The translations under genes and the position numbers were made by a program. This document shows, in pieces, positions 1 through 18,858 of a stretch of DNA of 31,642 nucleotides. The stretch's first letter is position 1; each line of letters starts with the position of its first letter. The stretch is taken from positions 1 through 31,642 of the IMG/VR virus record IMGVR_UViG_3300037309_000017. One strand, 5' to 3'. The notes beneath the pieces were generated by a model that was given only the letters and a program-made list of their open reading frames with translations, had not been told where the DNA came from and searched no databases. The stretch comes from a virus. Taxonomy: Duplodnaviria > Caudoviricetes.

Positions 1-211
1 CGGGGACGACCACAGGATCGGGCACGACGCGGAACGTGCAGCCGCTGACGTAGAGAGCCTCGCACGCCGGCAACTCCGGCAGGCTCTTGAGGCCCGTGCA
101 GCCGCTGGCGTTGAGCCGCTCGCACGCGGGCAACTCGGGTGGCATGTCCGACAAGTCGCTGTCGGGGTACAGCGTGATGCTGGTCGCGGCCCAATCAACT
201 TTGCGTGTCAT
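1..211 (-). CDS. Leucine-rich repeat protein, copy 1 (3' end runs off the window)
   Basis: Not in the ORF track. Hand translation from the ATG at 211, which overlaps the TGA of the upstream gene: MTRKVDWAATSITLYPDSDLSDMPPELPACERLNASGCTGLKSLPELPACEALYVSGCTFRVVPDPVVVP... Paralog of 2836-3441. Confidence 0.8.
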   Translation of the reverse strand, partial: MTRKVDWAATSITLYPDSDLSDMPPELPACERLNASGCTGLKSLPELPACEALYVSGCTFRVVPDPVVVP

Positions 212-1029
212 CGCGCGTCCTCCACTGCAAACCTCTGGTACTGCCTCAGCGCCCACTCGGGCACGTCGATGTCGCCCTCGTCGTGGTACATGGGCCACTG
301 GCCCGTCCCGCGGCAACGGATGTACTCGGCGGTCCAAGTGGCGATCTGATCCCTGGCCATCGCCATCGACCGCTCGCCAATCTGGTACACCGCAACGCCG
401 TAGGGCGCGTCGCTCTCGACCGCCAGCAGGGTGAATTGTGAGCGTGGGAGCCCCAGACGCGACGCGCCGAGCTCGTACCACGCTGCCTGGGTGTGGTACC
501 CGTAGTCCATCAGGGACCGCGAAAACGAGTGGCGCGAGGCATCGCGGGTGGTTTTGAGGTCGAGCAGAATGTTCGGCTCGGTGGTCGTGATCCGCTTGTC
601 CACGCGGGCCTTGCACAGCCCCAGCGACGGCTCGTCCCACACCAGCACGACCTCGGTCTCGCCGGGCTGATTGCGCAGCCAACGGGCCTCGCGGTGCAAA
701 CTGATGGCCTTCGCCTGCCCGAGCATGTCGTCGTGTTCGGCCTTGGTGATGACCTCTTGGCCAGCCATGTCCGCCGCCGCCGCGAAGGAATCCCACGTCT
801 TGCCGCGTCGCTCGCCGTCCCACACCGCCCATCGCTCGCTCCACGTCGCCCGCTCCAATACCCACGCATGCAGGGCACGACCGGCACGCTTCGCCAGGCT
901 GTCGTCGCCGCCCGTGTAGTGCTTGCAATGCCACGCGCTGCGCGCCATCTGGCGGAGCGTGCTGTGGTTCATCGCGGGGCTCGCGATGTAGCGGTCGAAC
1001 GTGATGTTGGTGTGGATGCCCGGGGTCAT
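208..1029 (-). CDS. PD-(D/E)XK exonuclease, RecE/exonuclease VIII-like (DUF3799-type)
   Basis: 273 aa with family motifs YIASPAMNHSTL, GRALHAWVLE, CKARVD...LLDLKTT and YGYHTQAAWY. Confidence 0.88.
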   Translation of the reverse strand: MTPGIHTNITFDRYIASPAMNHSTLRQMARSAWHCKHYTGGDDSLAKRAGRALHAWVLERATWSERWAVWDGERRGKTWDSFAAAADMAGQEVITKAEHDDMLGQAKAISLHREARWLRNQPGETEVVLVWDEPSLGLCKARVDKRITTTEPNILLDLKTTRDASRHSFSRSLMDYGYHTQAAWYELGASRLGLPRSQFTLLAVESDAPYGVAVYQIGERSMAMARDQIATWTAEYIRCRGTGQWPMYHDEGDIDVPEWALRQYQRFAVEDAR

Positions 1030-1037
1030 TGGATGCT

Positions 1038-1484
1038 TTACATGGACGCGATCGCCTGGTGAACCTTGGCGAGCTCCTGCAATCGCCGGTACTTTTCAGA
1101 CACGGCGCGAAACTCGTTCTTCGCCCGCGACAGCACCTGGGCCCGCAGATCGTCGATGCTCATGGCGTGTCCGAGCGACTGGTAGTGTGTCCGATTGTCC
1201 TCCCGAACTACCACGAAGGCCCGGGCCGGATGCGGCGTGCTTTCGACGACCACCTCGATCTGGGTGATGATGCTACTCGCGAGGTGGCGTCGCCAAGCCT
1301 CAGCCGCGACGCTATCCTCCCATTCGATCAGCGAGTGCAGCGGAGACTCGCGATCGCGTGCGTCGCCGAGCACGATGTCGATGTTGAGTCCGCCGTGCTG
1401 CCGTCGTAATCGTTCGAGACGTTCGCCGACCACCTGCGCCACCTTGGGCGAGAACCTCGCGCCCGGCTTCCACTGGTATCGCAT
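1038..1484 (-). CDS. Conserved phage hypothetical protein, candidate accessory of the RAMP/array locus
   Basis: 148 aa with AGGAG RBS at 1491-1495. The motif ARDRESPLHSLIEWEDSVAAEAWR resembles a recurring phage family (SPLH..FEWDD..AA...R). Lies directly downstream of the pentamer array. Confidence 0.75.
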   Translation of the reverse strand: MRYQWKPGARFSPKVAQVVGERLERLRRQHGGLNIDIVLGDARDRESPLHSLIEWEDSVAAEAWRRHLASSIITQIEVVVESTPHPARAFVVVREDNRTHYQSLGHAMSIDDLRAQVLSRAKNEFRAVSEKYRRLQELAKVHQAIASM

Positions 1485-1498
1485 GTCAATCTCCTATT

Positions 1499-1528
1499 CT
1501 CGCGACGTGGCGTCAACCACGCCGCGAG
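1499..1528 (-). other. Strong hairpin at the 3' end of the pentamer array
   Basis: Minus strand CTCGCGGCGTGG-TTGACG-CCACGTCGCGAG forms a 12-bp stem with one G-U pair. No U-tract follows, so a processing or stability hairpin is more likely than a terminator. Confidence 0.6.
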
Positions 1529-1534
1529 CCGTGC

Positions 1535-1759
1535 ATGCCCCGCCAAAACGCACCAAGCCACTCCGCGACTCGCCGCACCTGCCGCAACGCACCGAGCCCT
1601 GCCATGACGCGCCGCACCTGCCGCAACGCACCAAGCCTCGCCATGACGCGCCGCGCCTGCCCGAACGTGCGATGCCCTGCCTATCCGGGCGACACCCAGC
1701 CTGCCATCACGCGCCGCGCCACGCCACGCCAAATCAAGCCATAACCCAACAGGCCTGCC
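1535..1759 (-). ncRNA. GGY-NN pentamer repeat array, putative guide RNA array (VIPR vrRNA-like)
   Basis: 41 in-phase pentamers: 26 start with exact GGY, 14 have one mismatch, 1 has two. GGCA delimiters begin at 1759, 1705, 1661, 1622 and 1583, with spacings of 54, 44, 39 and 39 (all 5n+4). Intergenic, immediately 3' of a RAMP-like gene. Confidence 0.8.
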
Positions 1760-1765
1760 GCGAAT

Positions 1766-1789
1766 GCCCGCCAGCCCGTAGGCGGCGGC
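1766..1789 (-). other. Hairpin with C(UACG)G tetraloop at the 5' end of the array
   Basis: Minus strand CCGCC-GCC-TACG-GGC-T-GGCGG, about 10 nt after the RAMP gene stop and just before the first GGCA delimiter. Confidence 0.55.
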
Positions 1790-1798
1790 GCTGTGTTG

Positions 1799-2575
1799 TC
1801 ACGCGCCGACCACCTCGAAACGACCAAAATGGCCATCACGCTCAGGACGCCACTCGCCAATGCCGACGCCGTAGCCCGCCCGGTGCAGCAGATTGGCGAC
1901 GCGCTCCGGAGTCATGGCCGAAGTCTCGAACGAAATTGGGACTGTCATCTCCCACTCCTTGAACTCGCCGCGGAAGCGAGGCGTTGCGGTATTCCCACGG
2001 TCGATCCTCGCGACATCCGTCCGCATCTCGACCTGGCCACGAATCGGCACGAGCTCCTGCAAGATGTGGAACGACATGCGCGCGTTGGTCTTCGCGAGGT
2101 CCACCAGACCGCAGGCCGTCGTCATCGCCTGCTTGATTCCGATGGCCGGAAAACCCAGCGTGTAGGTACGCAGCATCTGCATGGCCTTGGCCTCATCGTC
2201 GCGGGCCAACGCAATGACCTGATCAGGGTCACCCCGGATGATGTGCAGGCTGTCCACGAATTCACGGAACGGCTCGCGAGGCTGCTTGCCCTCGTCGGCC
2301 TTGCCCGTCTGCTTGTCCACGATTTGCATCAACGCCTTGTGCGAAAACCGATGCACGATCAGGGGGGACAGGCCACGGATGACGAAGTGGATCGTCTCGG
2401 TGCGGATAGCCGGTATGCTGATCCGGGCGGTTTTCTTGACGGTCGGCACATCGCCAGTCTTGATCTTGGCCTCGGCGTCGTCATCGTGCCGCAACACAGG
2501 GGGTCGCCCGGTCTTCACGGCACGCGCAGCCGCCGACTTGGCCAAGTACCGTTCCGCTTTGTTCGTAGCAGTCAT
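1799..2575 (-). CDS. Stand-alone RAMP/Cas7-like protein (Vipr-like)
   Basis: 258 aa with AGGGAG RBS. RAMP-like hallmarks: first strand FVIRGLSPLIVH, FPAIGIKQAM (cf. iPgsslKGa), PRFRGEFKEWEMTVPISF, and the C-terminal Gly-rich loop AGYGVGIGEWRPERDGHFGRFEV. Confidence 0.75.
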   Translation of the reverse strand: MTATNKAERYLAKSAAARAVKTGRPPVLRHDDDAEAKIKTGDVPTVKKTARISIPAIRTETIHFVIRGLSPLIVHRFSHKALMQIVDKQTGKADEGKQPREPFREFVDSLHIIRGDPDQVIALARDDEAKAMQMLRTYTLGFPAIGIKQAMTTACGLVDLAKTNARMSFHILQELVPIRGQVEMRTDVARIDRGNTATPRFRGEFKEWEMTVPISFETSAMTPERVANLLHRAGYGVGIGEWRPERDGHFGRFEVVGA

Positions 2576-2677
2576 CGCCTACTCCCTGCACAGTCACACC
2601 AACGCGGGTCGCACGACGCGGCCCAGGAACCCCGCGACGCGGCTTTCGCCTGCGGCGCAAGGGAGGGGAGGGATAGA

Positions 2678-2839
2678 TCACTCGTCTGCGTCGTCGGGCT
2701 CGTCCCACACGATCCAATCGCACTCGGTGCAGTACGTGGAGGGTGGACGCCACTCTTCGTACGCTCCTACGGGCAGCCAGTACCCGCGCTCGGTTGCCGT
2801 AGGCGCGCCGCACTCAGGGCAAGGGGCCGTGCAAGTCAC
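2678..2839 (-). CDS. Small zinc-ribbon protein (53 aa)
   Basis: GTG at 2839 overlaps the LRR gene stop (GTGA). Contains CPECG...YCTECDW and an acidic tail. Confidence 0.6.
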   Translation of the reverse strand: MTCTAPCPECGAPTATERGYWLPVGAYEEWRPPSTYCTECDWIVWDEPDDADE

Positions 2840-3441
2840 AGCGCACGCTCCCCCAGGGCCCATCGCAACAGTGCGACAGACACTCGCCTGCTCGCTGGCA
2901 TGACTAGCTCCAGCCGCCTCTTTTGCTCCGCCGTCAGTGGAGTCTGATCGCATCCGCCAAGCCCCGTGCAGCCGCTGGCGTAGAGCCACTTGCACGCGGG
3001 CAGCGCGGGCAGGCTCACGAGCCCCGTGCAGCCGCTGGCGTTGAGCCGCTCGCACGCCGGCAACTCCGGCAGGCTCTTGAGGCCCGTGCAGCCGTTGACG
3101 TAGAGCCGCTCGCACGCCGGCAACTCCGGCAGGCTCTTGAGGCCCGTGCAGCCGCTGGCGTAGAGCCACTTGCACGCGGGCAGCGCGGGCAGGCTCACGA
3201 GGCCCGTGCAGCCGCTGGCGTCGAGCGTCTCGCACGCGGGCAGCGCGGGCAGGCTCACGAGGCCCGTGCAGCCGCTGGCGTAGAGCCGCTCGCACGCCGG
3301 CAACTCCGGCAGGCTCTTGAGGCCCGTGCAGCCGTTGACGTAGAGCCGCTCGCACGCCGGCAACTCGGGTGGCATGTCCGACAAGTCGCTGTCGGGGTAC
3401 AGCGTGATGCTGGTCGCGGCCCAATCGACAGTGCTCGTCAC
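2836..3441 (-). CDS. Leucine-rich repeat protein, copy 2 (201 aa, seven 20-aa repeats)
   Basis: GTG at 3441 overlaps the upstream TGA and aligns with the start of copy 1. Repeat consensus LP(E/A)LPAC(ER/KW/ET)L(Y/N/D)(AS/VN)GCTGL(K/V)S. Confidence 0.85.
   Translation of the reverse strand: MTSTVDWAATSITLYPDSDLSDMPPELPACERLYVNGCTGLKSLPELPACERLYASGCTGLVSLPALPACETLDASGCTGLVSLPALPACKWLYASGCTGLKSLPELPACERLYVNGCTGLKSLPELPACERLNASGCTGLVSLPALPACKWLYASGCTGLGGCDQTPLTAEQKRRLELVMPASRRVSVALLRWALGERAL
2960..3366. repeat. Tandem 60-bp coding repeat, about 7 copies
   Basis: Successive 60-nt lines from 2941 to 3360 align almost column for column. Confidence 0.95.
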
Positions 3442-6010: not shown

Positions 6011-6502
6011 TCAAGTCGCGGGCTTGGGCTGTGCCGCGGCAACAACCGCCTTGCTCGCCTCGTCCCAGTTGGCGTCGGCGACCCTGTTCTGTCGGGAGCG
6101 CAACCACCACGCGAGCGGCCCGCCGAGCACTGCCCCGGCTAGCACGCCCCAAGGACCAAACGCCGAGCCGATCGCCTGGGCCGCAGCCGCAGCCACCGTC
6201 GCCCCGTCTCCGGCGCCATTCGCCTGCGCGCGTTCGGCGCCCGCAATCACGCGATGCGCCAACTCGATGATCGGGGCCGCCTGCCTGTCGTGCTTCTCCA
6301 CGTCGCCGCCGGAAGCAACGACAACCGCACGCTGGGCCTCGATGTCGCGGACGGTCTGGATGGCCGCTTGCTTCGCCATCTCGACGACCTCGGGCGTCAG
6401 TTGCGGACCTTGAGAGGCACAGCCACCGCCCATGATCGCCATGCCCAGCACGGCGGCAGAAAGGGTGACGGACAGCATGAGAACTCGTAGGGACTTCATC
6501 AT
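6011..6502 (-). CDS. Putative lipoprotein with a C-terminal TM segment (163 aa)
   Basis: ATG at 6502 overlaps the upstream stop. MMKSLRVLMLSVTLSAAVLGMAIMGGG-C resembles a signal peptide plus lipobox. Hydrophobic AFGPWGVLAGAVLGGPLAWWL near the C-terminus. Confidence 0.65.
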   Translation of the reverse strand: MMKSLRVLMLSVTLSAAVLGMAIMGGGCASQGPQLTPEVVEMAKQAAIQTVRDIEAQRAVVVASGGDVEKHDRQAAPIIELAHRVIAGAERAQANGAGDGATVAAAAAQAIGSAFGPWGVLAGAVLGGPLAWWLRSRQNRVADANWDEASKAVVAAAQPKPAT

Positions 6503-8274
6503 GGAACCTCCTGCACAGAGACACCAAACGCACGGCGCGCACGCGCCGCGAAGGTCTTCGCCCACCACTGCGGATTCTCGGATCCCTTGCGCACCGCCGA
6601 CGCCGCGAACTGGGCAATGGTCGCGTGCGGGTCCGACGACTGGACGCCCAGCTCCGAGAGCCAAGACGCCGCCGAGAACGCCGGAAAGTTGCGTGGTTCG
6701 AGCTTCGCGGAGGGCTCAAACTGCCGCCACCAGAGGATGTCTTTGGGCTGGTTGCTGGCGTCCTTTGCCATCGGGCTGCCCCAGTAGATGTTGCCGGACA
6801 GCGTGCCGCCCGGCGTCGTCACGCCGGGGTACAGCTGCGCCGCCGCGCCGCTGCCGGGATGGGCGAAGACGTTGTTTCTGACGATCTCGCCTGGCTGGAG
6901 CGATCGGCGGAACTGCAAAGCCGCGCCGTCCCAATTCCAGACGACGTTGTTTTCGATGACGACCCGCGATGACGAATCGTTGTCGAAGTACAGACCGGCC
7001 TCGCGAGAGCCCTTGCAGTTGGCGACCACGTTGCCGCGAACGACTCCGTTCACCGAGCGGACGACGCCGATCCCAAAGCCACGGGGCAGGCTGCTTGTGA
7101 TGGAAGGGGCTCCGTCGATCACGGCACAGCGCTCGATGACGCCCTCCCATCCGTCCGTGGGCCATCGCCCAAGCGGATGCCCGCCGCCGATGCCGAGCGG
7201 CGCACCGAGAACCGCGCACTCGAAGGCGCTGGACGTTTTGCCACGCAACTGGATCGCACCCGCAGCCGGGCGGATGCTCCACACGTTGGAGAGCGTGATC
7301 CGGTCGGACCCGGACACCACGTAGGCGTTTTGGTTGTAGATTGTGGCGGTCGCATCGCGGCCTCGCGCGGCATCCCAGCCGTTCTGATACAGGACGCCGT
7401 GTTCCAGCAGCAGGCCATCGACGCCCTGGAGGTACGTGCCCTGCGAGTGTGACGCGGAGCCGCCGTAGCAGTCGCGGATGACGAAGCCGCGGACGACGCC
7501 ATTACGGATGGCGTTGAGGTACGGCCCTTGCCCGAGCCCCTCAGCCTCGACGACCAGACCGGTGCCACCCGCCCCGCGAATCTCGGTGTCTTCAATCGCC
7601 CAGTCGTTGCAGTTGCCCAGGATCTTCACGGTGCCCCGGAAGTCGATGCCGCTGATGATCCAGTTGGACGCGCCGAAGTGCATGGACGCTCCACCGGTGA
7701 TGACGGGCGGGGGCAGGTCGGCGTTTCCATAGGACGTGATGACGATGGGGGCCTGCGGGGACGCCCCGCTCTTGCGCCAGTCGTCGGGCTCGGTGCCGCC
7801 GGACGACACGCCCAGCCGACCGGGGATGACCGATCCGCGAGCAATGCGAACCTGATCGGACGAGCCAGCCCGCACCTTGCGGTACGCGGCGTCCTCAGAT
7901 CGGCACGGGGCGCTCGGGCTGGTGCATGACCCTGTGTCGGACGCGGATGGGTGCGACGGGTCCACGTAGTAGACGCTCGCCCCCGCGCGCGGCGCCAGGT
8001 CGGCCCATGCGATCGTGGGGATGTTCACGCACGTCGAGAACCTTTGGTAGAACGCGTCAACGTCCGCGTTGTCCGGGAAGACACCATCGCCGTTGATGTC
8101 GATTCCATCACAGGACGCGGCTGGGCACGGGCCGCCGCCGAGAACGCCGAGGAAGTCCGCCACGTCGGCTACGTCTGGATATCGACCATCGTTGTTGAAG
8201 TCGATGTCGCACGGCGCGGCGAGGGCCGGGGAACAGGTCAGGGACAGTGACGCAATGAGGGCACGCGGACGCAA
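6499..8274 (-). CDS. Secreted protein: signal peptide, dockerin/EF-hand-like duplicated motif, right-handed beta-helix
   Basis: 591 aa. Signal MRPRALIASLSLTCSPALA. CDIDFNNDGRYPDVADVADFL...CDGIDINGDGVFPDNADVDAF. YYVDP motif followed by beta-helix repeats (VVRGNVV, VIENNVV, IVRNNVF). Confidence 0.8.
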   Translation of the reverse strand: MRPRALIASLSLTCSPALAAPCDIDFNNDGRYPDVADVADFLGVLGGGPCPAASCDGIDINGDGVFPDNADVDAFYQRFSTCVNIPTIAWADLAPRAGASVYYVDPSHPSASDTGSCTSPSAPCRSEDAAYRKVRAGSSDQVRIARGSVIPGRLGVSSGGTEPDDWRKSGASPQAPIVITSYGNADLPPPVITGGASMHFGASNWIISGIDFRGTVKILGNCNDWAIEDTEIRGAGGTGLVVEAEGLGQGPYLNAIRNGVVRGFVIRDCYGGSASHSQGTYLQGVDGLLLEHGVLYQNGWDAARGRDATATIYNQNAYVVSGSDRITLSNVWSIRPAAGAIQLRGKTSSAFECAVLGAPLGIGGGHPLGRWPTDGWEGVIERCAVIDGAPSITSSLPRGFGIGVVRSVNGVVRGNVVANCKGSREAGLYFDNDSSSRVVIENNVVWNWDGAALQFRRSLQPGEIVRNNVFAHPGSGAAAQLYPGVTTPGGTLSGNIYWGSPMAKDASNQPKDILWWRQFEPSAKLEPRNFPAFSAASWLSELGVQSSDPHATIAQFAASAVRKGSENPQWWAKTFAARARRAFGVSVQEVP

Positions 8275-8277
8275 ACG

Positions 8278-11200
8278 CTACCTCCTGCCCGGCAAGTACG
8301 GGCTCGAAACGCCGATGGTCGGCAGACGCCGCAACGCGCGGCGGCTCGTGTCGTACAACTGGTCGGGGAAGTCGCCCGAGTTGATGGCGCTGATGATCTG
8401 TCGCGCCGTTTCCTCTTGGGCTGCGTCCTGCAACAGGAAGAACCCGGGCGTCGCGCCCTGACGCACGCGGAGAAGAGCGTCGGCGATCTTCGCCTCATCC
8501 CAAGGCGGCTGGAACGCGATACCCAATTGGCAGTTGTCGGGGACGACCCACGCGCCGTTGCCGGGCGTGTTGATGTTCACGCCGATCAGCATGAACCGGC
8601 GGTTCGCGGCCCGGGCCGTGTCGATCGCACCGGCCACCGTGATCGGCACGGGCTCGGCACCGGGCACAATGCCCTTGGAGACGCAATAGTCGTGCAACTT
8701 GCTGTACTGCGCCTCCTTGGTCGTGTCGCCGATGACGGCATCCCACCAGATATCCCTTATGCCGATGCCCTTCCAGAATTCGATCTCGCGATCAATGTAC
8801 GCCTGCTCTTTGTCGGGGCTCAGCAGGGTCCGGAGCGGGCTCTGCGTCGTCTGTCGCGTCTCCCAGACCGCGCCCAGGTACACCGCGACGGTCGGATACC
8901 CATAGCGCGCCCGCCATGTTGCAATCTGTGCGGCGGTCAGCGTGTCCCGGAAGTAGCCGTTGAGCCACGGCCACCACTGCTCGACTGAGTAGTAGTAGTC
9001 GATCGCGCCGCCGGTGTGCCACCACGGGGAGATCGCGTTGCCTCGCGGGACGTGGAGCATCACGTATGGCGCTCCGATCCGCTGGGCTTGGGCGAAGTGG
9101 GACTCGATGTACGAGCGGGGATCTGGGAGCGAGAGCGTGTTGATTCCGCGCTCGTTGATGTCGTGCAGCCCGCTGGGGAACGACACCCACATGAAGGGCG
9201 GGAGCGGGACATTGGACGACACGCCAGATGCGTATGTCGGCGCCGGTCCGTACTGGTAACATCCTCGCGTGCCAACCATCGGCACACCATCCATGCCGAC
9301 CGGGGCGAGATTCGTCAGATCGCTGAGCCGCGAGTCAACTTCGGAGCCAGTGACGTTCAGCCGGGCCGAGGCCTGAAGATCGTAAAACTCAGTTGCGGCG
9401 TGGGTTGTTGCCGCCGCGTCGATGGCGGCGGTCCACTCGGCGAGCGTGTTGTACGCGGCCCGGCTGGAGAATTGGCCCGTGCCAATGCCTACGTAGGCGT
9501 TGCGTCGAAAGAGCCGCTGCCCCGCGGTCTCGTCCCAGTTGTCGCCCCAGAAGAGGAAGCGGTTGGTGCCACTGGTCAAGAATCCGTAGCGACCGCCGTA
9601 GGCGGCGTGCTTGCGGGCGCTGGACCACGGATAGGCCCACGACCGAAGGTTGTCGTTGGTGCTCTCGCCCACGTCGATGCCGGTGCATGATCGCTGAATG
9701 ATGTCGGTCTGCCGCATGCGGAACACATGCACGTTCGCCGACGAGTTGAGGTTGGGACGCAACTCGCAGGCGTCGAGGAGCCAGGTGAAGGTGGGCGAGT
9801 CGGCGGTGAGGCCGTCGTCCATGACTCGACCAAGCGCGGCGGCCTTGGTGTTGGCCTGCTCCATCCCCATCCGGCAACCGCGCATGTACACGTTCGACTG
9901 GATGGTGAACCCGACCGCGCCCTCACAGATGCAGTCGATGAACTTGACGCCATACGCGTCGGGGTCGTCCAGAGCCCTCGCGGGGGTGAGCGCCGCCGGG
10001 CTGATGACCTGGGCGCACGACCACGGCGAACTGCCCGCGCCCACCGCGTAGGGGAAGACGAAGCGCTGGCCTTCGACGGTCAGGAACCCGGGCCCCAGCC
10101 TTGCGGTGCTCTGTGCCGTGCCATCGTTGTGGACGTACAAACCGATGATCGTCCATGAAGTGCTCAGGGGCGTGCCGTCGCGCTTGAGCGGTGCGCAGCA
10201 CACGTACTGCATGCCCGGAGCCATCGTGTTGCCGGTCTGGTTGTCGTGCTGCGTGTACCACACCCCGAGCGTCGAAGAGGCGCTAGCGCTGCCCATCGCG
10301 CCGATCAACTTGCCCTCGCCCTGCGGGAAGACGCCGCTGTTGCTCATCGTGCCAGCGGCGTTGTCGTCCACGCCCCATCCGTGGTGATAGCCGCCGTAGA
10401 CGGTGCGGTCGTGCCCGCAGACCCACGAGCCGTACCACTTGACGAAGTATCCAAAGCCCGGTGCCGGGTCGATGTTGAGCGAGGCGCGCAAGTACTCGAT
10501 ACGGCCCGAGCCGCCGAAGAGGTTGAGGACGTTCTTCCCGCCCTCGCACCACTCGATGACGCGGCCCGTGGGGGACTGCCCGCCCAGGTTGATGCTCAGT
10601 ATGCCCGTGCCGCTTGCGTAGTGCCACGAGTCATTCGTCGCGGCGCACGCGGCGGCGTCCGCAGCGTCCGCGAGTTGGCTCTTCGGGCACCCCCAGATGT
10701 CGCGGGCGCAGGTGTCAAAGTCCACCGCTACGCCCTTTACGCTCTTGCCGGTGCCGATGCTGGAGGTGTACACGTTGCCCGATTGGGTCCACGGGCCCGC
10801 CGCGACCCACGCCATGCGCAGATCGTAAGGGACGGCGTTATCCCATCGCTTGAACGTGACGTTCGGGGAATCATTGAACGTCGCCGCGCCGCGAATGATG
10901 CCGCGCATGCTCACCACGTCGTTCGCGCCCAGTTGGTTGCCCGTCTCGGTCGCGAGCTTCGTGAGCGTCTTCCACGGCGTGGCGAATGAGTTTGTCGGGG
11001 CGGCATCGTTGCCGTTGTCGCCGTCGATCCACCACTGGGTCGGCACCTCGGCTGGTGCGGGGTTGATCGTCACGGTCGTAGACGCAATATTGAACCGCTC
11101 GCCCGCGTCGCTGACGACGCATCGCACGTCGTACGTGGCGGGGATGGTACCGACCTCGAACGAGTGCGTGTACTGCTCACCCGATCCGAGCGGCGTCCCG

Positions 11201-13947
11201 TCTGCCAGATACCAATTCCACGACACGATGTCATTGTCGGGATCGGTGCTCGGCGAAGCATCGAGCGTGATGTCCACAAACCCATCCGCGTCCTCGTCGG
11301 TGGCGGCATACGGGCCGGTCGTGCGGGCAACGGGCGGATTCGTGGCGGCGGGCGGGATGTACGGGAGCGTCTGGGTGAAGAACGCGGCGGACGCTTTCAC
11401 TTGCCCAAAGAGCGTAGCGACGCACACGACCTTGTAGACGCGGCCCGGCGCGAGCGTGGTCAGTGCGAGCGTGTTGGCGTTCGTCCCGACTGGTGCGTCA
11501 TCGAGATACCATTGGAAGTCGGGGTATAACTCGCCCGGAACGAGCGTGAGCGTGTCGGGCAAGCCGCCGATGCCGCAAAACCACGCGGTGGCCGGAACTC
11601 CAATCGGGGTGGCCTGCACGGTGGCGGGGCCGCTGATCTCCGGGGTCCAATGCTGAAACGCCATGTCGAACAGCGGATCAATCGGATCGGACACGGTTAC
11701 GGTCTTGAACGCCTGCCCGGTCAGCCCGTCGCCGTCGGTGACGGTGAGACGGAACTGATATGCCTCTGGACGCACGTCGGCGGTGTAATTGTGCGTCGCG
11801 GTGGTGGCGACCTGATCCCATGCGCCCGTTCCGATGTTGAGCACATCCCATTGGTACGACGTGATGCCCGCATCGTCGGTGCTCGCCGTGCCGTCCAGGG
11901 CGACAACCTCGGAACCGTTCTCGTCGTTGTCCACGAGGACGAGCGTTGCCGCGCCTGCATTGGCCACCGGCGGCAGGTTGATCGCGCCACCGTCGCCGTA
12001 CTCCAGGCCGTACCCGTCAAAGATCCAAGGGATGATTGCGGCGGGGCTCAGCGACGTATCCCAGTCTGTGCGATTCTGGCTGGCGCGGACTGCCACGACG
12101 TACTGGCGGATGGCGTTGAGGGCCTTCGCGTCGTCGTTGGCCCCGCTGAGGGTCCAGCCCTTCACCGTGGTAGCCCACGTCGAGAAGTTGCGCGTGCCAT
12201 CGACGAACGTGGCGTCGTCAACGGCGGACGCGGCGGTGCCGGACTGCCGCGTCCTTGCGAAGAACGTCGCGTAAGGGACGAGTCCTCCCGCGTGGGTGAT
12301 GACCCATCCGGAATCGGCACCCGGCGCGAACCACGATGCATTCGCGAACACGCCGCCGTAGTCGGTAGCGTTGTTCGGATCGCTGCCGATCCAGGCGAGC
12401 TTGCCCGCCGGGGTCTGCACCACGCGGAAGTTCGGGCCGATGCGTTCTTCCGCACCCAAGCGGCGCTGCAGGTACACCATTGCCCCGTTGTTGTTCGTGC
12501 CCGGCGCGCCGACCATGATGATGTCGCGGTACACGCCGTGCGTGCTCACGCCCGGGGTGTTGACCTCGAAGTTGAAGGCTCGCACGTCGCCGCCGTTTTG
12601 CAGTCGATGCAGCAGCAGGGATTGGAAGACCGGGACTTGCGTCCCCGGGGTGTCGGGGTCGTAGGAAGACGCGGACGCGGCGAGGGTCGCGGCTTCCTGA
12701 TCGGTCCACTGACGAGGATTCGCGCCGCCGGGGGCCGCGATGACCTTGGGGTTGATCGTGCGTTGCTGGCGGGCGTATGTGCTGGTGTATCCGAACCCGC
12801 GGGCGTCAGCGCCAGCCGTCGAAATGTTGTTGCACTGGAAGACGTAGCAGGCGAGGATCAAGCCCCAATACCCGGGGTTGGAGATTCGCAGGTTCGCGTC
12901 TGTCTGGGTGCCGCCCGAGATGTTGATGGGGTTTTGCAGCGCGATGCACCGAAACGCGCACGCGTTGTTGGCTCGCAACTGAAAGCCTGTTGCGCTGCCG
13001 TTCCATGCCACACAGTCCCTGAACAGGACGTTGCGGTTGGTCTGGTTGCAGTACACGTTGTGATCGAAGATCGTGCCCGGCGCCTCGGTGCCGAACTGGG
13101 TGCCGTACGGCTGGCCCGTCGCCCGCCAGTTGCGACCACCACCGAAGAAGTAGCACTCCTCGAACAGAGCGTTGTTCGTGAGCTCGATATACGCGCCTTG
13201 CCCGTGGCCCGCGCCGTTGGGGCCGCACTCGTCGAAGACGCAACGCCGGACAACGAGGTTGTCTTTGTTGGGCTGCCATCGCAACCACCAGGACACCGCG
13301 TCCGTGTTCGGGACCGACCACGACATGCCGTAATAGGCGCGCCGCACAATGACGGACTCGAACAATACGTTGTTGACCGTAAACTCGGCGGTCAGGCCGT
13401 TGGCGACGTTCGTTGTCTGAAAGAAGTCGTGATTGAGGAACAGATTGACGAACGCGAGGTTGCTATTGCTCACGATCTTGAGCGCGTTTCGGCCTGCGGG
13501 CGGGCGAATCTCGGCGGGCTTGCCCAGGCCGTAGACCGGCGATCCGCTCGACAGGTAGTACGTGGTGACGATGTGGCGCTGGGTCGAAGAGATGCCGCTG
13601 CGGAACCACGACGGATCGCCCGTCTGCCCCGCGCCTGTCCATCCGCCGATGTGCTCTGCGTACGCGCCCGACCAGTTGGGTTCGTCGCCGCCTGCGGTCT
13701 TGCAGCAAATCCAGTGCGATTGACCAGCGACCCCCGCGCCCGTGCGGATCTTCTCAAAGCCCGCAAAGATCGTGCGGAGAGGCTGGGTCGCCGTGCCGGG
13801 ATTGGCGTCGTTACCCGCAATGGGATCGACGTGCCACTGGTTTGGCGAGCCGGACGACAGCGACGCAAGCACGGTCCAGCCGTTGCCGTCCTGGGTGCCA
13901 TACGTGACGTTGAGGGTCGGTACGGGTAGCGCCACGCGGACTCCCAT
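8278..13947 (-). CDS. Giant multidomain protein (1889 aa): beta-helix, PKD/Ig-like domains, second beta-helix, C-terminal domain; probable receptor-binding or depolymerase protein
   Basis: WHVDPIAGNDANPGTATQPLRTI and WWIDGDNGNDAAPTNSFATPWKTL are pectate-lyase-like caps. PPVANAG...LDGTASTDDAGITSYQW and PPVAR...LDASPSTDPDNDIVSWNW are PKD-like. Located after the tail-tip genes. Confidence 0.8.
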   Translation of the reverse strand: MGVRVALPVPTLNVTYGTQDGNGWTVLASLSSGSPNQWHVDPIAGNDANPGTATQPLRTIFAGFEKIRTGAGVAGQSHWICCKTAGGDEPNWSGAYAEHIGGWTGAGQTGDPSWFRSGISSTQRHIVTTYYLSSGSPVYGLGKPAEIRPPAGRNALKIVSNSNLAFVNLFLNHDFFQTTNVANGLTAEFTVNNVLFESVIVRRAYYGMSWSVPNTDAVSWWLRWQPNKDNLVVRRCVFDECGPNGAGHGQGAYIELTNNALFEECYFFGGGRNWRATGQPYGTQFGTEAPGTIFDHNVYCNQTNRNVLFRDCVAWNGSATGFQLRANNACAFRCIALQNPINISGGTQTDANLRISNPGYWGLILACYVFQCNNISTAGADARGFGYTSTYARQQRTINPKVIAAPGGANPRQWTDQEAATLAASASSYDPDTPGTQVPVFQSLLLHRLQNGGDVRAFNFEVNTPGVSTHGVYRDIIMVGAPGTNNNGAMVYLQRRLGAEERIGPNFRVVQTPAGKLAWIGSDPNNATDYGGVFANASWFAPGADSGWVITHAGGLVPYATFFARTRQSGTAASAVDDATFVDGTRNFSTWATTVKGWTLSGANDDAKALNAIRQYVVAVRASQNRTDWDTSLSPAAIIPWIFDGYGLEYGDGGAINLPPVANAGAATLVLVDNDENGSEVVALDGTASTDDAGITSYQWDVLNIGTGAWDQVATTATHNYTADVRPEAYQFRLTVTDGDGLTGQAFKTVTVSDPIDPLFDMAFQHWTPEISGPATVQATPIGVPATAWFCGIGGLPDTLTLVPGELYPDFQWYLDDAPVGTNANTLALTTLAPGRVYKVVCVATLFGQVKASAAFFTQTLPYIPPAATNPPVARTTGPYAATDEDADGFVDITLDASPSTDPDNDIVSWNWYLADGTPLGSGEQYTHSFEVGTIPATYDVRCVVSDAGERFNIASTTVTINPAPAEVPTQWWIDGDNGNDAAPTNSFATPWKTLTKLATETGNQLGANDVVSMRGIIRGAATFNDSPNVTFKRWDNAVPYDLRMAWVAAGPWTQSGNVYTSSIGTGKSVKGVAVDFDTCARDIWGCPKSQLADAADAAACAATNDSWHYASGTGILSINLGGQSPTGRVIEWCEGGKNVLNLFGGSGRIEYLRASLNIDPAPGFGYFVKWYGSWVCGHDRTVYGGYHHGWGVDDNAAGTMSNSGVFPQGEGKLIGAMGSASASSTLGVWYTQHDNQTGNTMAPGMQYVCCAPLKRDGTPLSTSWTIIGLYVHNDGTAQSTARLGPGFLTVEGQRFVFPYAVGAGSSPWSCAQVISPAALTPARALDDPDAYGVKFIDCICEGAVGFTIQSNVYMRGCRMGMEQANTKAAALGRVMDDGLTADSPTFTWLLDACELRPNLNSSANVHVFRMRQTDIIQRSCTGIDVGESTNDNLRSWAYPWSSARKHAAYGGRYGFLTSGTNRFLFWGDNWDETAGQRLFRRNAYVGIGTGQFSSRAAYNTLAEWTAAIDAAATTHAATEFYDLQASARLNVTGSEVDSRLSDLTNLAPVGMDGVPMVGTRGCYQYGPAPTYASGVSSNVPLPPFMWVSFPSGLHDINERGINTLSLPDPRSYIESHFAQAQRIGAPYVMLHVPRGNAISPWWHTGGAIDYYYSVEQWWPWLNGYFRDTLTAAQIATWRARYGYPTVAVYLGAVWETRQTTQSPLRTLLSPDKEQAYIDREIEFWKGIGIRDIWWDAVIGDTTKEAQYSKLHDYCVSKGIVPGAEPVPITVAGAIDTARAANRRFMLIGVNINTPGNGAWVVPDNCQLGIAFQPPWDEAKIADALLRVRQGATPGFFLLQDAAQEETARQIISAINSGDFPDQLYDTSRRALRRLPTIGVSSPYLPGRR

Positions 13948-17487: not shown

Positions 17488-18858
17488 TCAGAACGTCAGC
17501 AGTACCCCGTTGATGCGCACCCCATCCCGGCGAATCTGCTCCAGCAGACGCCGGGACTCCTCCTCGACGACGGTCTGGCGGCGCAACTCCTCCAACTGCG
17601 CGTCCGCTGCCCGGGTGAACTGAGACTCCCGAGCGACCGCAGCCGCCCGCGACGCCTCGCCCGACCCTGCAAGCAGCATGTCGGGGCGTCCCGCCTCTGT
17701 GGCCATGCGGCCCGCCATCGCTCGCTCCACGCGGCTTGCGAGCTCGTCGTCCCAGTAGGCATCAAAGTCTTCCTGCATCCGACGCTGGCGTTCGGAGAAC
17801 TGCTTGGACGCATCCTCCAAATCCAGCTCTCGCTTGATGCGTTCGGCGACGGCTGAGTTTGCCTTCTCGGTGCTTTCCCTCATCTTCACCTCGCGCTCGA
17901 CACGATCGGCTTGCATAGCCCTGACGCGATCGTTCGCCTCTTCAATCCTCGCCAAGATGTCGTTGGCTTTCGCGTAAGAGTCGGCCATAAACCCTGCGAA
18001 GTTGTAGACTCGCCCAAGGACGGTGTATTCTTTGCTCGCCCTGGCTCCGGCCCGGAACACGTCGCCTAGCGGCACCCTCTGAAGCGCGATCATTGCTTCG
18101 GTGATCCCTTGGAGGGCCGTCCTCACTGGTGGGGTGATGGACGAGGCAAAGGTATCCGCGAACGACTGCCACACCATCTGCAATCGCTTCACCGCGTCAT
18201 CGGTCTTCTGGATCGCCTCGACCTGACGCTCAGATAGCCCGATGCCGTCCTGCGCGGCCTTCGCGATCATCGCGTCGATGCCCGCCGACCCGCCCGCAAG
18301 CAGGTTGGCGATGCCGCGACCGCCCCTGCCGAAGATGCCATTGACCGCCGAGAGCCGCTCGCCCGCTGTGCCCAGCCTCGACACCGCGTCCGCGATCCGG
18401 CGAAGTTGCTCTACGGGATCGAGACGCGCGAGGGTTTTCGCGTCCAGTCCGAGCTTGCCCAGCACACCGCCATCCTCAGACGCCGCATCTTCTGCGATCG
18501 TCTGCGACATGCGATGAAGTAACGAGTCCAGCTTCTCCGCGCTAAGCCCGGCCTGCACCGCCGCGTATTGCAGCCGTTGGAGCCGGTCCGTCGCCACGCC
18601 GAGCCGCGACGCCGCGTCCGCGATCTGATCGACTCGGGCGATGGAATCCACCACCGTTTGTACCGCAAGGTGTGCTGCGGAAACGGCGGCCACCACCCCA
18701 CCGCCCGCAAGGAAAAAACTCGACATGCGGCTTAGAGACGCGGACACCGCCGCGCCCCATCGGGACGCTTTCGCCTCCATGCGATTCAGCGTGGACGAAA
18801 AGCCCTCGTCCTTGGCCGTGAAGACTGCCGAGACTGGTGCGAGCCGCTTGGCCATCAT
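17488..18858 (-). CDS. Tail tape measure protein (456 aa)
   Basis: Ala-rich and helical. IADAASRLGVATDRLQRLQYAA and AVNGIFGRGG are TMP-like motifs. Follows the tail chaperones. Confidence 0.85.
   Translation of the reverse strand: MMAKRLAPVSAVFTAKDEGFSSTLNRMEAKASRWGAAVSASLSRMSSFFLAGGGVVAAVSAAHLAVQTVVDSIARVDQIADAASRLGVATDRLQRLQYAAVQAGLSAEKLDSLLHRMSQTIAEDAASEDGGVLGKLGLDAKTLARLDPVEQLRRIADAVSRLGTAGERLSAVNGIFGRGGRGIANLLAGGSAGIDAMIAKAAQDGIGLSERQVEAIQKTDDAVKRLQMVWQSFADTFASSITPPVRTALQGITEAMIALQRVPLGDVFRAGARASKEYTVLGRVYNFAGFMADSYAKANDILARIEEANDRVRAMQADRVEREVKMRESTEKANSAVAERIKRELDLEDASKQFSERQRRMQEDFDAYWDDELASRVERAMAGRMATEAGRPDMLLAGSGEASRAAAVARESQFTRAADAQLEELRRQTVVEEESRRLLEQIRRDGVRINGVLLTF

Follow-up and report, generated by a model that had tools for sequence, protein, structure and literature searches.

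The question raised by this phage locus is what a tandem array of degenerate pentamers between two genes on the minus strand encodes and, should it specify guide RNAs, where these begin and end and which sequences they recognize. The analysis covered a window of 31,642 nucleotides, taken from the virus record IMGVR_UViG_3300037309_000017 (48% complete), whose phage context is evident from terminase, portal, protease and capsid genes among the 14 of 189 open reading frames scanned. A preliminary description made from the letters alone had divided the array into five units of GGY/NN pentamers, and all five units, their coordinates and their NN lists were reproduced (Table 1). A GGY phase parser assigned the array a score of 38.2, compared with at most 6.6 in the rest of the window; dinucleotide shuffles of the array yielded a mean of 4.6 and a maximum of 9.9, none of the 1000 reaching 38.2. 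Canonical GGY accounts for 26 of the 41 triplets, and the entropy of the five pentamer positions amounts to 0.28, 0.96, 1.30, 1.71 and 1.74 bits. A Logan contig of 1875 nt, possibly from the same source sample, is identical to positions 1000-2530.

Each unit is preceded by the 4-nt step GGCA, which breaks the pentamer phase as originally observed and corresponds to a 1-nt overlap of the pentamer registers, and the units abut directly with neither tail nor spacer. The hexamer GGCAGG, formerly proposed as the delimiter, does not serve as such: copies occur in phase within U2 (1681) and U4 (1603), and related arrays have 630 copies that shift the phase beside 260 that keep it. The boundary mark is the 4-nt phase step and not the hexamer. 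Units U3 to U5 share a 39-nt period with 85% matches (TRF) and are likely the product of duplication. Where U5 ends on its 3' side is ambiguous, as its last pentamer GGCAT may represent a closing GGCA, which would leave eight NN. Degenerate GGY pentamers (GGCTC, GGCGT, GGTTG) continue past U5 at positions 1485-1534 of the minus strand and may represent a tail or what is left of a sixth unit. An Rfam scan of positions 1000-3000 detected no ribozyme and a single chance match, and a promoter and terminator scan remained at chance level.

Table 1. Coordinates of the array, its units and junctions, and other features considered here (positions refer to the window unless a locus number is given).
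Feature	Position	Strand	Remark
Staggered vrRNA array	1535..1759	-	Five GGY/NN units, 4-nt GGCA step ahead of each
Unit U1, 10 NN	1706..1755	-	
Unit U2, 8 NN	1662..1701	-	Predicted guide against Sak4-like AAA_24 gene
Unit U3, 7 NN	1623..1657	-	Likely shares duplicate origin with U4 and U5
Unit U4, 7 NN	1584..1618	-	
Unit U5, 8 or 9 NN	1535..1579	-	
GGCA junctions	1756-1759, 1702-1705 (U1/U2), 1658-1661, 1619-1622, 1580-1583	-	4-nt step
vipr gene, RAMP-like Vipr protein, 258 aa	1799..2575	-	Identified by homology and fold
vap accessory gene, 148 aa	1038..1484	-	AGGAG ahead at 1495-1491
591-aa protein	6499-8274	-	Duplicated N-terminal motif
1889-aa protein	8278-13947	-	No clear family
L049 unit	L049:2629-2791		Matches the thumb-coding region of vipr at L006:693-725 and at 35 further loci

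The array is separated by 39 nt from the vipr gene and by 50 nt from vap, all on one strand, and belongs to a minimal vipr and vap locus on a phage. The length of 258 aa given for Vipr exceeds the collection's own call of 232 aa, which uses a later start. A single-sequence phmmer comparison with the SUSP1 Vipr (36PP) yielded an E value of 2.8e-4, the SUSP1 protein was the sole match of profile A1 (E 1.8e-9), and hhalign aligned the Mooglevirus homologue across 163 columns with a probability of 97%. The best folds found for the AF2 model (pLDDT 89) are Csm3/Cmr/Cas7 RAMPs (Z 10.7, rmsd 3.3, 150 aligned), and the protein combines a RAMP-like architecture with RRM core, thumb and glycine-rich loop in a non-CRISPR context, as known for VIPR. 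The residues H17, R138, D177, W178 and R179, which read GGY in the SUSP1 protein according to the accessible part of 10.64898/2026.04.26.720927, align with H75, R202, E241, W242 and R243, and the GGY-reading residues are invariant across 117 Vipr homologues. The vap product belongs to phrog_15946 (E 8e-20), and its AF2 model (pLDDT 93) gave no clear fold match (none with E <0.001 in Foldseek; best Z 5.0). An Exonuclease VIII-like (DUF3799) gene follows directly past vap (208-1029, minus strand), and the vipr-vap-exonuclease module is bracketed by two leucine-rich-repeat genes (2836-3441 and 1-211, both minus strand) with near-identical 5' ends and 60-nt repeats, the latter running past the contig end.

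An alignment search provided 163 loci with Vipr homologues, a single-protein locus search having given none. A GGY/NN array is located on the vipr strand at 148 of the 163 loci and on the other strand at none, and a vap homologue is found at 145 of them. The arrays of these relatives, evaluated as 164 distinct arrays, comprise 9076 pentamers with positional entropies of 0.39, 0.80, 1.19, 1.92 and 1.98 bits. Accordingly, the statement that information is confined to the NN dinucleotides was correct in that variation is concentrated there, but not in its exclusiveness, both here and in the relatives; equal variability of GGY and NN in related arrays, which had been named as counter-evidence to guide function, was not observed. 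The repeats beside vipr are intergenic tandem repeats of the YNNGG (GGY/NN) type with a conserved triplet and variable NN. GGCA represents 698 of the 930 4-nt steps in the relatives, and the unit length peaks at 9-11 pentamers. The rule that the last pentamer starts with GT applies to U1 to U4 and is not general among the relatives, in which GTY stands before GGCA at 77 of 689 junctions (11%) and begins 1108 of the 9076 pentamers overall (12%). GTY is the commonest non-canonical triplet in the arrays of loci L001-L163 (12%), and a hairpin pairing of GTY with GGY was ruled out, there being no excess over shuffles. The first NN past the junction is skewed in these loci (AA in 152 and AT in 95 of about 693 cases). 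Junction variants were also seen: in a Phycisphaerales locus (L149:926-1398 and 2742-2948) the junction is mostly CGCA after GGCAA, and in L028:2161-2887 it is GGCN followed by GTC.

A natural target was decoded for U2. The reverse complement of its NN list had been read before any scan as R-V-(I/M)-L-Y-G-T-(H/Q), which we took to be a phage ATPase motif. An exact scan of IMG/VR for U2 with a 1-nt skip returned an estimated ~170 stretches, and 118 of the 120 among the matches listed fall on one gene site, the other two being unrelated. This site encodes RVMLYGT(H/Q), the residues leading into the Walker A motif, in a Sak4-like AAA_24 gene carried by temperate phages linked to Phycisphaerales; named homologues of the gene are mostly from Phycisphaerales or Phycisphaeraceae. 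Among the 118 listed sites 42 different 23-mers occur. The matching stretch stops precisely where the unit meets its two GGCA junctions: the NN flanking the target are CC on one side (118 of 118) and CG or CT on the other, never the junction bases. The skipped bases are third codon positions, and hence the suggestion that a 1-nt gap would place the skipped base on the wobble position holds for U2. An in-frame ATG lies 36-75 nt upstream at 97 of the 118 listed sites. The unit specifies 16 bases, and four of its eight triplets are non-canonical.

The comparison with shuffled NN, which the preliminary description had recommended, turned out in favour of the match, since one shuffled control in IMG/VR gave 12 scattered hits in eight clusters (largest 3) against 118 of 120 listed matches at one site; a single alternative skip of 2 nt gave 7 hits in four clusters, and skips of 0 and 3 nt were covered on small local sets. 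In 401 Planctomycetota genomes (the phylum of the Phycisphaerales record G001) U2 was found in seven, always in the Sak4-like gene, and the reversed control in none. When guides of relatives were compared with 26 U2-target phage records, 0 of 374 were perfect at a 1-nt skip; a shuffle test within these 26 records is circular because the records were chosen by U2, and it was not counted as evidence. In the targets, the Sak4-like gene is followed by SSB-like, resolvase-like, helicase and primase genes. Two annotated target records contain integrase, portal, capsid and tail genes (40 of 72 open reading frames scanned) and are therefore full temperate phages. The tape measure protein of the window (17488-18855, minus strand) is ~29% identical across 170-185 aa to those of 8 of 40 target-phage stretches, besides which only the exonuclease matched such stretches (3 of 40). 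An AAA_24 or Sak4-like gene was not found on the phage's own contig (48% complete), and the phage may possess a recombinase other than the Sak4-like type matched by U2.

A target was identified for one of the five units. U1 had no exact match in IMG/VR, three metagenome hits that all fall in unrelated hydrophobic segments, and none in 50 U2-target records (50 of the 118) at up to three mismatches; with up to two mismatches, 25 matches stood against 21 of the control in 401 genomes (order of G001). For U3, no full self match and none above shuffles was detected in the own contig and the 26 U2-target phage records. The 14 bases of U4 fit about 1800 IMG/VR stretches, and the 120 listed are spread over 85 clusters, the largest of which among the matches listed has 22 members, a size attributable to chance. 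The first eight NN of U5 yielded 30 IMG/VR hits in 19 clusters (largest 7), none of which reaches the ninth NN, and three matches against nine of the control in the 401 genomes. At a 1-nt skip the own contig contains no full match to any unit, the best being 6 of 7 NN for the short U3. Units U3 to U5 may be decayed guides or guides against unsampled elements.

A second guide-target relation was obtained from the relatives. A search of 364 GGCA-bounded units, at least 363 of them from relatives, against the loci with their arrays masked resulted in two units with at least 90% at a 1-nt skip and none at skips of 0, 2 or 3 nt. One of these two, a unit of L049, matches vipr genes with 11 of 11 NN at 36 of the 163 loci (32 distinct sites), and it matches its own vipr at 6 of 11 and that of the window at 4 of 11 NN. 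Translated in frame the unit reads E-D-M-V-R-V-G-M-G-T-A, and its polarity is opposite to that of U2, as it reads like the coding strand. Guides against vipr genes have been reported in the accessible part of 10.64898/2026.10.15.759431. Separately, a gene close to a different vipr locus, on the minus strand of L143 (offset 1354), fits a unit of L152 at 9 of 10 NN when 1 nt is skipped. The U2-Sak4 and L049-vipr matches support the earlier proposal that the units are guides whose NN specify a non-contiguous target, and both display a 1-nt skip, wobble alignment and a target in another mobile element.

The host of the phage was approached through other genes of the window. The sole named relative of the N-terminal domain of the 591-aa protein comes from a Phycisphaerales bacterium; the duplicated N-terminal motif of this protein is presumably dockerin-like. 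Direct domain searches gave no hit in five genomes and, with this domain, none in 101 genomes, and a 359-aa open reading frame of the structural module was found in 2 of 301 Planctomycetota genomes. A Phycisphaerales host is therefore likely, a prediction that depends on one named cluster member.

The available data are very probably explained by a staggered vipr-array-vap region whose units would be guide RNAs for a Vipr filament silencing genes of competing phages, with U2 directed against Sak4. For SUSP1, one Vipr protomer is described per pentamer, with GGY hidden, NN presented to the DNA and every third target base skipped, and for VIPR an R-loop triplex and repression of transcription on either strand are reported (accessible parts of 10.64898/2026.04.26.720920 and 10.64898/2026.04.26.720927). 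In the present phage, vipr, array and vap would form a single transcript and probably an operon, and guide RNAs are likely released by division of the array RNA at every 4-nt GGCA step. The step would break the register of the filament and end it, and the exposed junction would undergo cleavage or trimming, for which host RNases are the most likely agents; when hairpins and ribozymes were considered as explanations of the boundaries, no hairpin excess and no ribozyme were found. By pairing with the coding strand at 36-75 nt past the start codon of sak4, the U2 guide would keep the sak4-ssb-resolvase-helicase-primase operon of a resident or co-infecting prophage from being transcribed, which likely amounts to silencing a DNA-recombination gene of other temperate phages. 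Cas6 and Csm3 RAMPs cut RNA, and a rather doubtful extension would be that in the widespread clade with GGCA junctions the precursor is cleaved by Vipr itself where the 4-nt step breaks the register, and that the present phage uses this to shut down the Sak4 replication operon of Phycisphaerales prophages; if true, maturation and deployment of a tailless multi-guide array would both fall to one small protein.

Alternatively, the array might act as one unprocessed RNA in which a GGCA step does no more than reset the register of the filament; a single transcript would then carry several independent targeting modules. The direct abutment of the units, the lack of an Rfam ribozyme in positions 1000-3000 and the location inside what is probably a vipr-vap operon, 39 nt from one gene and 50 nt from the other, would suit such an arrangement, but it appears unlikely, as the legend of fig. 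S18 of 10.64898/2026.04.26.720920, in its accessible part, refers to processed vrRNAs with 1-nt overlapping boundaries and the units of the relatives peak at 9-11 pentamers, like single vrRNAs. Readings of the region as a tandem repeat of low complexity, as an array of hairpins or as a piece of a coding frame are hardly conceivable. Although TRF reports the 39-nt period over U3 to U5, two long overlapping open reading frames cross the array and U3 and U4 fold as G-U-rich hairpins, shuffling of NN or of pentamers gives folding energies just as good (p 0.32-0.80), the mean folding z across 384 units from relatives is 0.15, the 4- and 5-nt steps lose any reading frame, and the array accompanies vipr on one strand. 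The match of U2 to one gene site also refutes these readings.

Given a genuine VIPR array, the match of U2 to Sak4 might still be a chance fit of a codon-like 16-base pattern to an abundant motif. Only one of five units examined converged on a target, Walker A lead-ins are common and conserved, and the 14-base pattern of U4 produced a 22-member cluster by chance among the matches listed; a coincidence is nevertheless improbable in view of the 118 of 120 listed matches at one site, compared with at most 7 of 30 for U5 and 3 of 12 for the shuffle, the 0 of 374 relatives' guides that fit the target phages perfectly at a 1-nt skip, the wobble-aligned frame, the position near the gene start and the prevalence of Phycisphaerales among the named homologues. 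It is likewise highly improbable that U2, being antisense to the message, acts on the Sak4 mRNA instead of the DNA. U2 does pair with coding-strand sequence, and the accessible part of 10.64898/2026.04.26.720927 describes pairing of SUSP1 VIPR with single-stranded RNA in vitro, but the same text reports mostly incomplete filaments on RNA substrates, and the opposite polarity of the L049 unit is what targeting of double-stranded DNA on either strand predicts.

The VIPR system itself is already published, and the novelty implied by the preliminary description does not stand, since the bioRxiv preprint 10.64898/2026.04.26.720920 contains the GGY/NN code as well as the 1-nt skip and arrays of the staggered kind. 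The locus contributes a natural target that could be decoded cleanly from a staggered array. By the U2 match, the limits of the units are set at the GGCA steps and the 1-nt skip gains support outside type II; the class of target so named, a Sak4-like recombination gene heading a replication operon, was not found in print. As a guide-target pair bearing on the processing of tailless arrays, U2-Sak4 matters for compact multiplexed VIPR tools. A link between vrRNAs and Sak4 was not found in the literature, where the figures and data S1-S4 of 10.64898/2026.04.26.720920 may list the clade, type or target; Sak4 and Planctomyc are absent from the searched text of 10.64898/2026.10.15.759431, GGCA and Planctomyc from the accessible supplement text of 10.64898/2026.04.26.720920, and a literature search with planctomycete terms contained no vrRNA work among the matches listed.

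Staggered arrays of VIPR RNAs with GGY/NN pentamers are known from Yoon et al. 2026 (10.64898/2026.04.26.720920, fig. S18 legend), where small-RNA confirmation is listed for ribozyme arrays and single vrRNAs and not for staggered arrays. Judged by sequence, the locus is a VIPR system of the staggered architecture, as every VIPR characteristic that could be checked was present. The 4-nt GGCA steps agree with the text of the legend, by which the comparison was made, and the locus resembles staggered VIPR in the presence of vipr and vap on a phage, the GGY/NN pentamers, the 1-nt unit overlap without spacer and a wobble-aligned target in another phage at a 1-nt skip with no self target; unlike it, three of the units are short (7-8 pentamers). 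With type II VIPR (SUSP1, P. fulva prophage; PDB 36PP) it shares the G(D/E)WR motif of the Vipr G-loop, the thumb Arg and the code. However, each type II vrRNA comprises 9-16 repeats and then a structured 3' tail that is conserved (10.64898/2026.04.26.720920), for SUSP1 a 3' pseudoknot according to the accessible part of 10.64898/2026.04.26.720927, and type II vrRNAs are spaced by tails and spacers, as in the Moogle locus, whereas the units abut here and comprise 7-10 pentamers, U2 to U4 only 7-8. The vap product and that of the gene after vipr in Moogle reached an hhalign probability of 0.08%, a weak test of a profile against a single sequence. The class 1 CRISPR proteins Cas7, Csm3 and Cmr4 have the RAMP fold in common with Vipr and are its top structural matches (Z 8-10.7). 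Repeat-spacer arrays with contiguous spacers were not detected in the window, nor were cas genes among the 14 open reading frames scanned. In contrast to class 1 CRISPR, the target specificity of the present array is non-contiguous, and the sole target found for it is a gapped one.
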